Source of the DNA: a virus
Virus genome (UHGV): UHGV-0050054
Length of the DNA: 14,933 nt
Reading direction: 5' to 3' (one strand)
Shown one piece after another: positions 5,428-12,650 of the stretch (position 1 is its first letter; each line of letters starts with the position of its first letter). Under the pieces are notes generated by a model. That model searched no databases. It was not told the origin of the DNA and saw nothing but the letters and a program-made list of their open reading frames with translations. The position numbers were made by a program, and so were the translations under genes.

Positions 5428-6396
5428 TTAGTAGGTTATTTTTGTTGCGAATACTTCGCCTTTTACGATGGCTGTTATGATATTTTTAGCAACATCTTCT
5501 GATGCACCAACCTTGATAAGGTCAGCAAGTATTTTGTTATTTACTTCTTTCCGGTGAGCTTTATCCTTTGCTCTACGCTCTTCTTCTTCCTTGATTCTTT
5601 TTTCTTCTGCTATTCTGGCTTGCTCTTTTGCTTCAGCCTCGCGACGGATTCGTTCAGCCTCCTCCTGTGCTTTTCTGCGTTCTGCTTCAATTGCTGCCTG
5701 CTTTTCTCTTTCAGCTCGTTCTGCTGCCTCTTTTGCTTCGCGCTGTGCTCGCTGCTCGGCTTCAATGCGTTCACGCTCTGCACGTTCCGCTGCGGCCTTA
5801 GCTTCTGCTTCTCGCCTTGCTGCTGCTTCAATTTCGGCTTTTGCCTTTGCTTCGGCTTCTGCTCTGGCTTTCTCTTCAGCTTCTCTTTTTAAGCGTTCTT
5901 CATGCTCTCGCTTTTCCTGCTCCGCTTTGAGTCTTGCCTCTTCTCTTTGGCGGTCAAATTCGCGATCCATCAAAATAGCTATTTCATGGTCAGACTCAAT
6001 TTGCTTTGCGAGAGCTTCAGCTGCTGCCTTAGCTTCTTCTTCGGCTTTAATCCGCGCCTGTTCTTCCTCATAATCAGTAAGAGGCTGGCGTGCCTTGGCT
6101 TTCAGCTCATCAAGGCGATAACGCACTGTCTTGCGGTTGGCATCAATTAGCTTTGGAATTTCCTTCAGTTCAGCAACAAGGTCTTTGCCAAGACCATCGA
6201 GATATGTTTTCGTCTGCGCAACTTTATACGCCAGAGAAGCGATCTCTTTTCTGCCCTTTGCCGTTGTGATATCAGGCACAAAGGACATAACTTCACGTTC
6301 AACCTTTTGGAGAATTTCTTCAATCTGGTCAGCAGACTGAAATACAATCATTGCATTTGCTTTTTCAATAACAACTAAATCTGTTACTTCACTCAT
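5428..6396 (-). CDS. Hypothetical protein (322 aa) with a long E/R/K/A-rich predicted single alpha-helix
   Basis: Track ORF 5428..6450; preferred start ATG 6396 with GGAGG 4 nt upstream. About 150 residues are runs such as EAEAKAKAEIEAAARREAEAKAAAERAERE; globular-looking N- and C-terminal parts. Confidence 0.65.
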   Translation of the reverse strand: MSEVTDLVVIEKANAMIVFQSADQIEEILQKVEREVMSFVPDITTAKGRKEIASLAYKVAQTKTYLDGLGKDLVAELKEIPKLIDANRKTVRYRLDELKAKARQPLTDYEEEQARIKAEEEAKAAAEALAKQIESDHEIAILMDREFDRQREEARLKAEQEKREHEERLKREAEEKARAEAEAKAKAEIEAAARREAEAKAAAERAERERIEAEQRAQREAKEAAERAEREKQAAIEAERRKAQEEAERIRREAEAKEQARIAEEKRIKEEEERRAKDKAHRKEVNNKILADLIKVGASEDVAKNIITAIVKGEVFATKITY

Positions 6397-6408
6397 ATAT
6401 CCTCCGTC

Positions 6409-6435
6409 AAAAAAATCGCCCTCACATTGGAGGGC
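6409..6435 (-). terminator. Intrinsic terminator-like hairpin just upstream of the 322-aa gene RBS
   Basis: Minus strand reads GCCCTC-caatgt-GAGGGC followed by GATTTTTTTGA (6-bp GC stem, 7-nt T run). Confidence 0.55.
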
Positions 6436-6530
6436 AAAGAAGATTTCCAATAATCAGAACAAGTCGGCTCCTGTTTAGTTATGAGCGACATTGCTCCGTG
6501 TATTCACTCGTTGGAATGAATACACAGTGC

Positions 6531-9659: not shown

Positions 9660-9725
9660 ATCAAATTAAACCACACCTATGATGTATGCATTTATTTGCA
9701 TTCCTTCAATCAATTGTTATCTAAG
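9660..9725 (+). terminator. tR1-like Rho-dependent termination region (by homology only)
   Basis: ATCAAATTAAACCACACCTATG...TGCATTTATTTGCAT...CAATCAATTGTTATCTAAGGAAATACT closely resembles the lambda nutR-to-cII interval containing tR1; no intrinsic hairpin plus T run. Confidence 0.4.
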
Positions 9726-9738
9726 GAAATACTGACAT

Positions 9739-10032
9739 ATGGTTCGTGCAAACAAACGCAACGAGGCTCTACGAATCGAGAGTGCGTTGCTTAACAAAAT
9801 CGCAATGCTTGGAACTGAGAAGACAGCGGAAGCTGTGGGCGTTGATAAGTCGCAGATCAGCAGGTGGAAGAGGGACTGGATTCCAAAGTTCTCAATGCTG
9901 CTTGCTGTACTTGAATGGGGTGTTGTCGACGACGACATGGCTCGATTGGCACGACAAGTTGCTTCGATTCTCACCAATAAAAAACGCCCGGCGGCAACCG
10001 AGCGTTCTGATCAAATACAAATGGAATTTTAA
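9739..10032 (+). CDS. cII: Transcriptional activator CII
   Basis: 97-aa product MVRANKRNEALRIESALLNKIAMLGTEKTAEAVGVDKSQISRWKRDWIPKF... matches lambda CII as recalled; AAGGA RBS. Confidence 0.92.
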   Translation: MVRANKRNEALRIESALLNKIAMLGTEKTAEAVGVDKSQISRWKRDWIPKFSMLLAVLEWGVVDDDMARLARQVASILTNKKRPAATERSDQIQMEF

Positions 10033-10045
10033 CAACATCCAACGA
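9977..10045 (-). ncRNA. oop-like antisense RNA (tentative; 5' end uncertain)
   Basis: Minus strand has the lambda-oop-type terminator (CGCTCGG-ttgccg-CCGGGCG then TTTTTTATT, plus 9977..10005) inside the cII 3' end, and a TATAAT at plus 10050..10055. No convincing -35. Confidence 0.3.
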
Positions 10046-10054
10046 GGTAATTAT

Positions 10055-10327
10055 ATGCGAAACAAAGGCTTTAATCCATCTGATACACACAAAGAAGCTA
10101 AGCGTTTGCGCTTCCTTCGTTCCATTGATGAAAGAACTCAAATCTCTTTTGTGAAAGTTGCCAGAACTGAGCTTCTGAAGGCTGAGGCGAGGGCGTTGCT
10201 CCCGTCTCTACCAAAAGAGGATGGATATACGTTCATTCCAAACGCATTTCTGGAAAAGCTGCTCAAAGAAGACATATCCGTAAGTCAGTTTAACGATGTT
10301 CTTAAGGTCTTTCGTCAAGGCAGGTAG
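10055..10327 (+). CDS. Hypothetical protein (90 aa) between cII and the initiator gene
   Basis: ATG 10055 with GAGG RBS 7 nt upstream; in frame with the longer track ORF 9746..10327. Stop TAG lies 2 nt before the initiator ATG. Confidence 0.55.
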   Translation: MRNKGFNPSDTHKEAKRLRFLRSIDERTQISFVKVARTELLKAEARALLPSLPKEDGYTFIPNAFLEKLLKEDISVSQFNDVLKVFRQGR

Positions 10328-10329
10328 TT

Positions 10330-11277
10330 ATGAGCAATACAGCAAAAATCTACGATTTCAGCGCCGCACACGAGCGCAGGAGCAACAGGATGGAGAACCA
10401 GAAAACTGGTTACATTCCGTTGTACCGGAGCATTCTGAAACAGTCATGGGCGAAAGATGTTTATCTTCGCACCCTGTGGGAAAACCTTCTCCTGAATGCC
10501 GCCAGAAAGCCATACAAAGCGAATTTCAAAGGTCATGAATGGCATCTGCAACCCGGTCAACTGGTTGTGACAGCAGCTGATTTAGGTCTTCAGTTATGCG
10601 ACAGGCATGGCAAGCCGGCAAGCCGTGATCAGGTTGAGCGGATGCTTCAGGTTTTTGTGAAAGAGGGGATGATCACCATTGATGGAGAGAAGCAAAAAGG
10701 TCGTGTGATCACCATCACAAATTACCATGAATATGCTCAAAAAATGGACAATTCACCCGCACATGAAGCCGCACAAACAACCGCACATGATGCCGCACAT
10801 GATGAAGCCAGTAATGGCGCGGCTTTCAGCGTACATACCGCACATGAAAGCGCACATGAAGCCGCACAAACAACCGCACATCATGAACAAGAAGGTATTA
10901 ACAAGAATATAAATAATACCCCCCTACCCCCCAATGGGGGAGGCGATGGGCAGGTTAAACATGAACGTCGCAAGGCAGAACGAATCGACTACGAATCCTT
11001 CCTGAACGCCTACAACACCGAAGTCGGTGACAGACTGCCACACGCTGTTGCGGTCAACGAGAAACGCAAACGCCGCCTGAAGAAAATCATCCCGCAACTG
11101 AAAACGCCAAACGTGGACGGTTTCAGAGCGTATGTCAGGGCGTTTGTGCATCAGGCCAAGCCGTTTTACTTCGGAGACAACGACACTGGCTGGACGGCAG
11201 ATTTTGATTACCTGCTGAGGGAAGATTCGTTAACGGGAGTTCGGGAAGGGAAGTTTGCAGACAGGGGGATTGCATGA
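10330..11277 (+). CDS. Replication initiator, lambda O-like N-terminus, with internal iteron origin
   Basis: 315-aa product; [10 protein letters not shown] resembles lambda O MTNTAKILNF; repeated [10 protein letters not shown] segments coincide with DNA iterons; stop overlaps the helicase start. Confidence 0.85.
10758..10945. repeat. Putative replication origin: iterons, AT-rich tract, GC-rich hairpin
   Basis: Identical 31-bp blocks at 10758..10788 and 10851..10881; at least 5 GCACATGA motifs; AT-rich 10886..10918; CCTACCCCCC-AAT-GGGGGAGG hairpin at about 10925..10945. Same layout as lambda ori inside O. Confidence 0.6.
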
Positions 11278-12650
11278 AACAGGATATCGAAGCGAGCGTT
11301 ATCGGTGGCTTGCTGATTGGTGGATTAACACCAACTGCCAGTGACGTTCTGGCAACGCTTGAGCCGGAAGCGTTTTCAATTCCGCTCTACAGGAAAGCCT
11401 TCGAAGTTATCCGTAAGCAGGCGAGAAACAGAAATCTAATCGACGCGCTGATGGTTGCCGAGGCGTGCGGAGAGGAGCATTTCACGTCAATCCTGATGAC
11501 CAGCAAAAACTGCCCGAGTGCCGCAAACCTGAAGGGATATGCCGGAATGGTCGCGGATAACTATCACCGCCGTCTGGTGCTGGAAATCATGGATGAAATG
11601 CGTGAACCAATTCAGAGCGGAACCATCGACGCATCGAGTCAGGCGATGGATGAACTTGTAAAGCGTCTCTCAGCCATCAGAAAGCCCCGTGACGAGGTTA
11701 AACCGGTACGCTTAGGGGAAATCATCACTGACTACACCGACACGCTTGACAGGCGTCTGAGGAACGGAGAAGAGTCCGATACCCTGAAGACCGGAATCGA
11801 AGAACTTGATGCCATCACCGGAGGGATGAACGCAGAAGACCTTGTGATAATCGCTGCTCGTCCTGGTATGGGGAAAACCGAACTGGCGCTGAAGATTGCC
11901 GAAGGCGTTGCAAGCCGCGTTATTCCTGGTTCTGACGTCCGGCGCGGAGTGTTGATTTTCTCGATGGAAATGAGTGCATTGCAGATTGCAGAGCGAAGTA
12001 TTGCCAACGCCGGGAGGATGTCGGTTAGCGTGCTGCGAAATCCTGCATCGATGGATGACGAAGGCTGGGCGCGCGTTGCTAACGGCATGAGTCAGCTTGC
12101 AGATTTGGATGTATGGGTAGTCGATGCCTCGCGGTTATCGGTCGAAGAAATACGCTCAATCGCAGAACGGCACAAACAGGAAAATCCAAACCTCTCACTC
12201 ATCATGGCGGATTATCTTGGCCTGATTGAGAAGCCGAAAGCAGACCGCAACGACCTCGCAATTGCTCACATCTCAGGAAGCCTGAAGGCGATGGCGAAAG
12301 ACTTGAAAACGCCTGTTATCTCCCTGAGTCAGCTTTCGCGCGATGTTGAGAAGCGACCAAACAAACGCCCGACAAACGCAGATTTGCGTGATTCAGGAAG
12401 CATTGAGCAGGACGCAGACTCAATCATCATGCTCTATCGGGAAGCGGTATATGACGAGAACAGTAGCGCCGCGCCATTTGCTGAAATCATCGTGACGAAA
12501 AACCGTTTTGGCTCACTTGGTACGGTTTACCAGCGGTTCTGTAACGGACACTTTGTTGCATGTGACCAGGATGAAGCCAGACAGATTTGCACAGCATCAA
12601 ATGCACCTGCTGCGCGTGGCAGACGATATGCACAAGGGGCGGACGTATGA
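11274..12650 (+). CDS. Replicative DNA helicase, DnaB family
   Basis: 458-aa product with Walker A-like [15 protein letters not shown] and DnaB-type C-terminal motifs; ATGA overlap with the initiator gene. Confidence 0.9.

Follow-up and report, generated by a model that had tools for sequence, protein, structure and literature searches.

Among the replication origins described to date, the closest published relative of the element reported here is the putative origin of the phage L/ST64T type, which is itself a prediction. Zaworski et al. (2021, G3, PMC8022706) identified six imprecise 11-bp repeats within gene 18 of phage L as the likely origin, and the GenBank record of that phage (MW013503) carries a rep_origin at 31650-31726 that is annotated as putative. 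In initiators of the O type, it is the N-terminal domain that determines origin specificity (PMC2629481; PMC8022706). Herein we analysed a 14,933-nucleotide stretch of viral DNA, UHGV virus genome UHGV-0050054 (the whole stretch is hereafter called the window), in which an original prediction made from the sequence alone had placed a lambda-type origin, built on a duplicated 31-bp iteron block, inside the gene for an O-like initiator. Our comparative analysis makes it very likely that positions 10758-10919 are the replication origin of this phage, lying in that part of its initiator gene which codes for the linker (Table 1). Judged by its sequence, the element is a new specificity type in a recognised, predicted sub-architecture of lambdoid origins.

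The two 31-bp blocks at 10758-10788 and 10851-10881 (CGCACATGAAGCCGCACAAACAACCGCACAT) are identical over exactly 31 bp, with no extension on either side. Their starts are separated by 93 bp, both lie in frame in the open reading frame (ORF) 10330-11277, and together they encode the same 10-residue peptide twice, just as the original prediction had described. Identity of this length by chance is excluded because its expectation, by our own estimate, is ~1e-11 (~1e8 position pairs x 4^-31). The same region also carries a shorter period. All five copies of GCACATGA in the window fall within 10759-10859, and the motif CGCACAW was observed 12 times on the two strands of the window where 5.8 +/- 2.3 matches were expected. 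Eight of these 12 matches are located in the 124-bp stretch 10758-10881, all on the plus strand and in 12-bp phase, and Tandem Repeats Finder recovered period-12 arrays at 10757-10802 and 10837-10881. The eight units, which form two arrays on either side of a central spacer, correspond to residues 143-186 of the 315-residue initiator, between its N-terminal and C-terminal domains. An inverted-repeat search found no dyad symmetry inside the 12-bp units. One terminator-like match within the repeats (10867..10850, minus strand) is probably due to chance, its stem being merely 5 bp long.

For comparison, a profile of the N-terminal domain was scanned against one genome per species, which yielded 36 prophage loci that are 48-85% identical to the query; a single-sequence scan of genome contigs with the same domain had given no match. 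Prophage loci from the profile scan and phage records made up a set of 32 loci of the window's group, with 213 units in total, and information content was computed over the 25 distinct loci that have 3+3 units. All 32 loci have a common layout, in which three to four units of four codons are followed by a spacer, a further three to four units and an AT-rich tract, the unit numbers among relatives being 3+3 or 4+4. The spacer consensus across these loci is ..GAA GCC AGT AAT GGC GCG GCY TC.., and the second array ends in a near-invariant CAT CAT GAA CAA GAA.

Conservation within the units is found at positions that are silent in the protein. The base preceding the core is C in 207 of the 213 units, and in 192 of the 193 cases in which it occupies a four-fold silent third position (gene background, 27% C), while the amino acid encoded by that codon varies among P, A, S, T, G, N and Y. 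The His codons of the units are CAT 175 times and CAC seven times, against a background of 82:59, and their Ala codon is never GCC or GCT, which make up 59% of the background. Over the 25 loci, the silent base carries 2.0 bits compared with 0.1-0.8 bits at the first base of the same codon, and CATGAACAA (codons 33-35) reaches 2.0 bits at each base, with flanking CAT and GAA at 1.5-2.0 bits. The five bases that follow each core are freely variable, such that what is conserved is a 7-bp core and its 12-bp phase. Because the silent base is more conserved than the first base of its own codon, the constraint acts on the DNA and not on the coding capacity. By this measure the gene carries two overlapping codes, one coding and one cis-acting; this double constraint had been part of the original prediction and is borne out by the silent C and CAT counts.

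A contrasting explanation is that the repeats have no cis role, and are instead a slippage-generated low-complexity linker of the form AHxx, possibly a His-rich metal-binding helix. The region does encode a repetitive Ala/His-rich linker, and tandem 12-bp units are prone to slippage; however, the greater conservation of silent than of replacement positions is not what such a linker would leave behind. Loci whose N-terminal domains are 43-52% identical to that of the window have the same layout with other cores (CCGATGAAC, GTCGAA, AGGTAAC, CGRTACA), and these other specificity groups encode unlike peptides there (PDEPCDKPSD, VEGSDEPPVE, EVTKQVSN). In phage L, the 11-bp period puts successive copies in different frames and therefore yields no peptide repeat. 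Copy number is likewise constant among close relatives, where the repeats are kept: the 4+4 layout is present without indels in 57 of 57 near-identical loci scored in IMG/VR. Substitutions among these 57 loci concentrate in non-core codons and in the degenerate unit that opens array 2, where close relatives differ most from one another (VHT, VHA, AHA, VRS and others). Silent-site conservation, the differing peptides and the phage L period rule out a purely peptide-level explanation, and we regard a linker devoid of any cis role as exceedingly improbable.

The same comparison bears on whether the functional iteron is the 31-bp block, in which case the origin would consist of two large direct repeats that each bind one initiator oligomer. 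The two blocks of the window are identical, comparable array-to-array block identity is found in two Yersinia loci (L003 and L110), and another locus (L114) has repeated peptide blocks. In most relatives, however, the block is missing, and when the variable bases were compared between arrays 1 and 2 over the 25 loci of 3+3 layout, their identity was 0.49 within a locus and 0.46 between loci. This within-locus likeness is not significant, a value as high being reached in 1215 of 10000 permutations. Phage Kapi1 has a differently arranged second array despite an N-terminal domain that is 99% identical, and conservation is limited to the core and phase described above. The 31-bp block was accordingly rejected as a conserved unit, the arrays being no more alike within loci than between them, and it is very unlikely to be the functional iteron. 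On this point the original prediction did not hold: the alignments identify the conserved unit as a 12-bp direct repeat with the 7-bp core C-GC(A/G)-CAT, present as two arrays of four in the window and in 3+3 or 4+4 copies in relatives. The most likely source of the block identity is a duplication or conversion event that recently joined the two arrays in sequence in the window's lineage.

Directly beyond the arrays, at 10889-10919, is the 31-bp duplex of lowest stability in the 14.9-kb window (nearest-neighbour free energy -30.9; mean -41.5, standard deviation 3.3), which confirms the AT-rich tract that had been predicted at this place. For each of the 32 relatives, the 31-mer of lowest stability in the initiator gene starts 7-20 bp past the first base of the last unit, and this position is independent of which C-terminal module comes next. 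The layout, the DNA-level constraint and the AT-rich tract together lend strong comparative support to an origin of the lambda type within the initiator gene, and the span originally given for it, 10758-10945, takes in the complete element.

The protein expected to bind the repeats has a match to Phage_rep_O (PF04492) in Pfam at residues 20-132, with an E-value of 3.6e-15 and a score of 56.7 bits against a cut-off of 28.7. Its N-terminal domain is predicted to adopt a winged-helix fold: an AlphaFold2 model (mean predicted local distance difference test score 75), for which 73 database homologues of the domain served only as the alignment, places helix 2 at residues 82-88, helix 3 at 99-111 and a beta-hairpin wing at 115-129, with residues 99-111 (nucleotides 10624-10662) as the predicted recognition helix. 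Foldseek returned weak matches alone (E ~0.01), all of them winged-helix DNA-binding domains (CRP, MarR, CodY), and a sequence search of the PDB found no relative at E <= 1. The 73 database homologues are all 77-241 residues long and many are labelled as partial. Draft assemblies may break at or just after the origin and the mosaic joint described below, perhaps because modules are shared between co-resident prophages, and a short-protein bias of the homologue search may be another cause of these lengths.

The initiator and the core vary together. Within each locus the Ala codon of nearly all units is either GCA (23 loci) or GCG/GAG (nine loci), with a single odd unit among the phased units in three loci only (L003, L107 and L109); the Ala codon of the spacer is almost always GCG in both types. 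Two initiator positions, A82 (or P) versus S and D100 versus H, divide the 23 GCA-type from the nine GCG-type loci with no exception, and neighbour-joining trees built without columns 82 and 100 indicate that the core type switched at least 2-3 times. In the AlphaFold2 model, residue 82 is the start of helix 2 and residue 100 the second residue of the predicted recognition helix; the N-terminal ends of helices in helix-turn-helix proteins are the usual places of DNA contact. This co-variation of A82S/D100H with a core base is suggestive of a link between the initiator and its iterons.

The spacer between the arrays (AGTAATGGCGCGGCT) is kept with minor changes in every specificity group examined as well as in phage L, where it is conserved despite a very different N-terminal domain and very different iterons. 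The middle positions of its codons vary and the first and third are fixed (GnC GnG). The last unit of array 1 and the first full unit of array 2 are 45 bp (15 codons) apart in all scored loci, and the corresponding interval up to the first unit of array 2 in phage L is 44 bp. No DnaA-box, IHF or Fis consensus was seen in the spacer on inspection by eye, without a formal test. A further binding site, a centre of DNA bending and a motif of the peptide are all conceivable roles for the spacer.

Such a spacer hints at a second ligand, and DNA-level constraint proves a cis role but not which one. The repeats might therefore function in autoregulation or copy control, or titrate the initiator; alternatively, they might be the target of a different protein, for instance a host factor or the one encoded by the small ORF that precedes the initiator gene. 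In either case the true origin would be elsewhere. Several observations make this unlikely. The arrays always stand directly before the least stable duplex of the gene, they occupy the place where the origins of lambda, P22 and phage L are located or annotated, and they co-vary with the helix-turn-helix residues of the initiator itself. In addition, no second cluster of the CGCACAW core was found elsewhere in the window, and a promoter/terminator scan found no sigma-70-like promoter in 9700-11400 that the arrays might regulate.

If 10758-10919 is the origin, a plausible course of events can be outlined. The winged-helix N-terminal domain would recognise the core C-GC(A)-CAT, head to tail every 12 bp, and approximately eight protomers, one per unit, would load the two arrays that flank the 15-bp spacer to form a nucleoprotein complex like the lambda O-some. 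Once loaded, the arrays, which are separated by about four helical turns, could associate with each other and distort the DNA, and the complex would destabilise or open the adjoining AT-rich tract. Finally, the C-terminal domain, of the P22 gp18/HK97 gp54 type, would deliver the phage's DnaB-like helicase; delivery of this kind is likewise assumed for P22 gene 18 and gene 12. Initiator binding with one protomer per unit, melting of the tract and helicase recruitment by the C-terminal domain are steps that we infer by analogy. The analogy draws on the homology to lambda O, whose binding to iterons is cited in PMC8022706, and on what is generally known of iteron origins. As the units are without dyad symmetry, the number of protomers bound and the geometry of their binding are guesses.

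A number of points weigh against this origin and the way it is proposed to work. The lack of a dyad in the units is unlike the lambda iterons, which are bound by O dimers. The true nucleation site could be the conserved spacer rather than the arrays. The co-variation has just 2-3 switches behind it, and residues 82 and 100 are encoded within ~200 bp of the arrays, such that linkage could contribute to it. The GC hairpin of the original prediction does exist, as C6-TA-C6-AAT-G5 at 10919-10940 within the C-run/G-run element, but it is not statistically notable: its DNA fold of -7.4 kcal/mol has z = -0.89 and 41 of 200 shuffles fold equally well, and it was rejected as a significant structural element. 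Finally, full-text searches of the literature yielded no experimental evidence of binding or origin activity for this iteron type.

A wider reading extends to the whole origin family formed by the window, its relatives and phage L, and holds jointly that the initiator assembles in a manner other than that of lambda, that AGTAATGGCGCGGCT is a separate site and that there is a residue-to-base code. We advance this combination only tentatively, as a possibility that is more doubtful than not. Were it true, single winged-helix protomers would be arranged head to tail on 11-12-bp repeats, with no dimer-on-dyad sites; AGTAATGGCGCGGCT would bind a host factor or act as a centre of nucleation or bending; and the switch of D100/H and A82/S would be a readout of origin specificity in which one residue reports one base.

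The origin also appears to be inherited as part of a module. A tblastn search of phage genomes splits the initiator in two, residues 3-195 and 190-315. Residues 3-195, which comprise the N-terminal domain and the repeats, are 76% identical in Klebsiella phages, and in Yersinia phages the match, of 74% identity, stops at residue 143, just ahead of the repeats. In the O proteins of these Klebsiella and Yersinia phages, a C-terminal domain of the lambda type (SSENSGESSD...) comes next, and the gene that follows O is annotated as a P-type replication protein. Residues 190-315, conversely, are 97% identical to HK97 gp54 and 60% identical to P22 gp18, proteins whose N-terminal halves are unrelated and whose repeats differ. 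At the DNA level, likeness shifts from the Klebsiella type to HK97 over ~10 bp inside the AT-rich tract, at ~10908-10918. At least three types of C-terminal module (P22/HK97, lambda and other) are joined to the iteron module, with the joint in the AT-rich tract; because the joint lies there, one inherited module runs from the N-terminal domain through the repeats into the left portion of the AT-rich tract, and the partner-binding C-terminal domain is another. C5/G5 arms with different loops are found in P22, HK97 and two further loci (L004 and L007) and are absent from relatives that have the same iterons and a lambda-type C-terminal domain, which places the GC hairpin in the P22/HK97-type C-terminal module and not in the iteron module.

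A distant homologue of the N-terminal domain is also encoded by a Gram-positive phage, Lactobacillus phage phiAT3. Its ORF30 (L011 1489-2286), annotated as a DnaD-like helicase loader, is 33% identical, and the domain is followed by a short repeat (NQVS..NQVS) and then a K/E-rich stretch. The origin-in-gene layout may consequently extend past enterobacterial phages.

Table 1. Coordinates in the window of the initiator and helicase genes and of the proposed origin elements.
Feature	Coordinates	Strand	Description
Initiator gene, lambda-O-like, 315 aa	10330..11277	+	N-terminal origin-binding domain, repeat/linker region, P22 gp18/HK97 gp54-type C-terminal domain
Region coding for the predicted N-terminal winged-helix domain, aa 1-141	10330..10752	+	AlphaFold2 model
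Putative iteron array 1	10758..10805	+	Four 12-bp direct repeats at 10758, 10770, 10782, 10794; core CGCACA(T/A)
Central spacer, AGTAATGGCGCGGCT, 15 bp	10810..10824	+	Codes SNGAA; between arrays, conserved
Putative iteron array 2	10830..10886	+	Degenerate CGTACAT at 10830, then 12-bp units at 10839, 10851, 10863, 10875
Junction of last iteron and AT-rich tract	10879..10893	+	CATCATGAACAAGAA, near-invariant
AT-rich tract, predicted DNA-unwinding element	10885..10919	.	77% A+T
C-run/G-run inverted repeat, CCCCCCTACCCCCCAATGGGGGAGG	10919..10943	.	Codes TPLPPNGG; start of C-terminal module
DnaB-like replicative helicase gene, 458 aa	11274..12650	+	DnaB_C E 9.5e-78, DnaB N-terminal domain E 4e-13 (Pfam)

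Gene content and Pfam matches identify the window as early-region DNA of a lambdoid prophage, with Ea22-like, RecT, N and cI-type repressor genes on the minus strand and cII, the O-like initiator, the DnaB-like helicase, NinB and NinX on the plus strand. The initiator gene is 98-99% identical in DNA sequence to genes annotated as 'replication protein O' in coliphages CUS-3, JEP4, Gally and HF4s, and ~50 Shiga toxin (Stx) 2a-converting phages have likewise 98-99% DNA identity to it. Its stop codon overlaps the start of the helicase gene by four bases, and the counterparts of that helicase in CUS-3, HK97 and P22 carry the annotation 'replicative helicase'; by analogy, the helicase is presumed to be the partner recruited by the C-terminal domain of the initiator. 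The origin segment was found in 283 of 5426 complete Escherichia coli genomes (~5%), and the carriers of the module include enteropathogenic E. coli E2348/69 and O121:H19 Stx2a prophages; in the carrier genomes it is annotated as 'replication protein' only.

Several further features were observed in and around these genes. The N-terminal peptide of the initiator (10330-10362) almost matches the start of lambda O, MTNTAKILNF; the N-terminus of lambda O is a ClpX recognition signal, and the initiator may by analogy be an unstable ClpXP substrate. Upstream, a strong hairpin resembling an intrinsic terminator (9981-10008, minus strand; 12 pairs followed by a T run) overlaps the 3' end of cII and matches the position of the annotated oop terminator of P22 and phage L, a placement suggestive of an oop-like antisense RNA ahead of the initiator gene. 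The GCTTCT hexamer is present in ~14 tandem copies at 5801-5884, within an ORF (5428-6450, minus strand, 340 residues) that has no match in Pfam. Phage TL-2011a (JQ011316 12510-14903; L131 111-2504), a close relative, has the same initiator gene followed by a DnaB-like helicase of 797 residues. An insert that matches LAGLIDADG/homing endonucleases interrupts the C-terminal domain of this helicase and may be an intein.

The finding leaves the concept of a phage origin unchanged, as an origin within the initiator gene is the textbook lambda arrangement; what is new here is the sequence type. We found no published description of this iteron type in the literature, whether for CUS-3 or for an Stx phage. 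Papers on the 'Eru' replication types of Stx phages treat proteins only, and the word 'repeats' occurs zero times in one of them (PMC8044961). Current work on Stx2a prophages relates the type of replication to the output of toxin (PMC8044961, PMC8951638). The typing of prophage replication modules in pathogenic E. coli has some practical relevance. Knowledge of the exact sites would allow origin specificity to be typed, replication incompatibility or cross-activation among co-resident prophages to be predicted, and origin-titration or recoding experiments to be designed. The locus is also a natural example of overlapping codes, in which silent positions are invariant under a DNA-binding constraint and amino acids drift. 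It also provides the winged helix of Phage_rep_O with a residue-to-base pair whose part in specificity can be tested; a PDB sequence search found no solved relative of that winged helix.

Origins that lie within the initiator gene are also known from the Gram-positive phages SPP1 (gene 38/oriL) and lactococcal Tuc2009 (rep2009). The iteron origins of theta plasmids (F RepE, pPS10 RepA, R6K pi) similarly combine winged-helix initiators, direct-repeat arrays and an adjoining AT-rich unwinding element; plasmid iterons are 17-22 bp long and are located outside the rep gene. Theta replicons of the Rep_3 type differ further in that the window's initiator is without a Rep_3-type domain, Phage_rep_O being the only one that Pfam finds.

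The lambda ori resembles the element of the window in its position in the middle of the initiator gene, between a DNA-binding N-terminal and a partner-binding C-terminal domain, and in the order of iterons, AT-rich tract and GC-containing inverted repeat. The iterons of lambda correspond to residues 116-144 of the 299 encoded by gene O, compared with residues 143-186 of 315 in the window, and both initiators have a Phage_rep_O N-terminal domain. The pairwise likeness is weak and confined to the first ~65 residues (32% identity, E 0.005), the rest of the N-terminal domain having no pairwise similarity. Lambda differs in having four 18-bp iterons (ITN1-4), spaced ~20-24 bp apart with an internal dyad (ATCCCTC...GAGGGAT), each of which is bound by an O dimer, and in having the P loader as partner in place of a DnaB-like helicase. 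The original prediction of a lambda-type layout with different iterons is thus upheld for the layout and for the distinct core but not for the iteron geometry, because the units are 12-bp direct repeats with no dyad.

P22 gene 18 and HK97 gene O share with the window the type of C-terminal domain, the C-run/G-run element that codes for TPLPPNGGG and the helicase partner, and the origin of P22 is annotated at the same relative place in gene 18. Both differ from the window in their N-terminal domains, which fall in another branch of Phage_rep_O, and in their repeats, which are dyad-like and spaced ~20-24 bp apart (P22: GGTAAAACATTTACC); their AT-rich tract resembles that of lambda (ACAAAAGACA...) and not that of the window.

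The putative origin of phage L shares the presence of repeats inside the initiator gene, a DnaB-like helicase gene downstream and an AT-rich tract. It likewise has two short direct-repeat arrays, of three units each, around a spacer (ACCAGTAATGACGCGGCT), followed by AACAATAATATAAATAATAT. The spacer has AGTAATGACGCGGCT in common with that of the window (consensus AGTAATG(G/A)CGCGGCT; phage L at L130 2690-2704). The phage L initiator is a colinear distant homologue that is 22% identical (pairwise E 2e-9) and falls below the Pfam threshold for Phage_rep_O. Its repeats differ in period (11 bp as opposed to 12 bp), in number (3+3 as opposed to 4+4) and in core, which is TGTCCAACGGA in phage L and CGCACAT in the window, and the two origins would therefore be of different specificity types.

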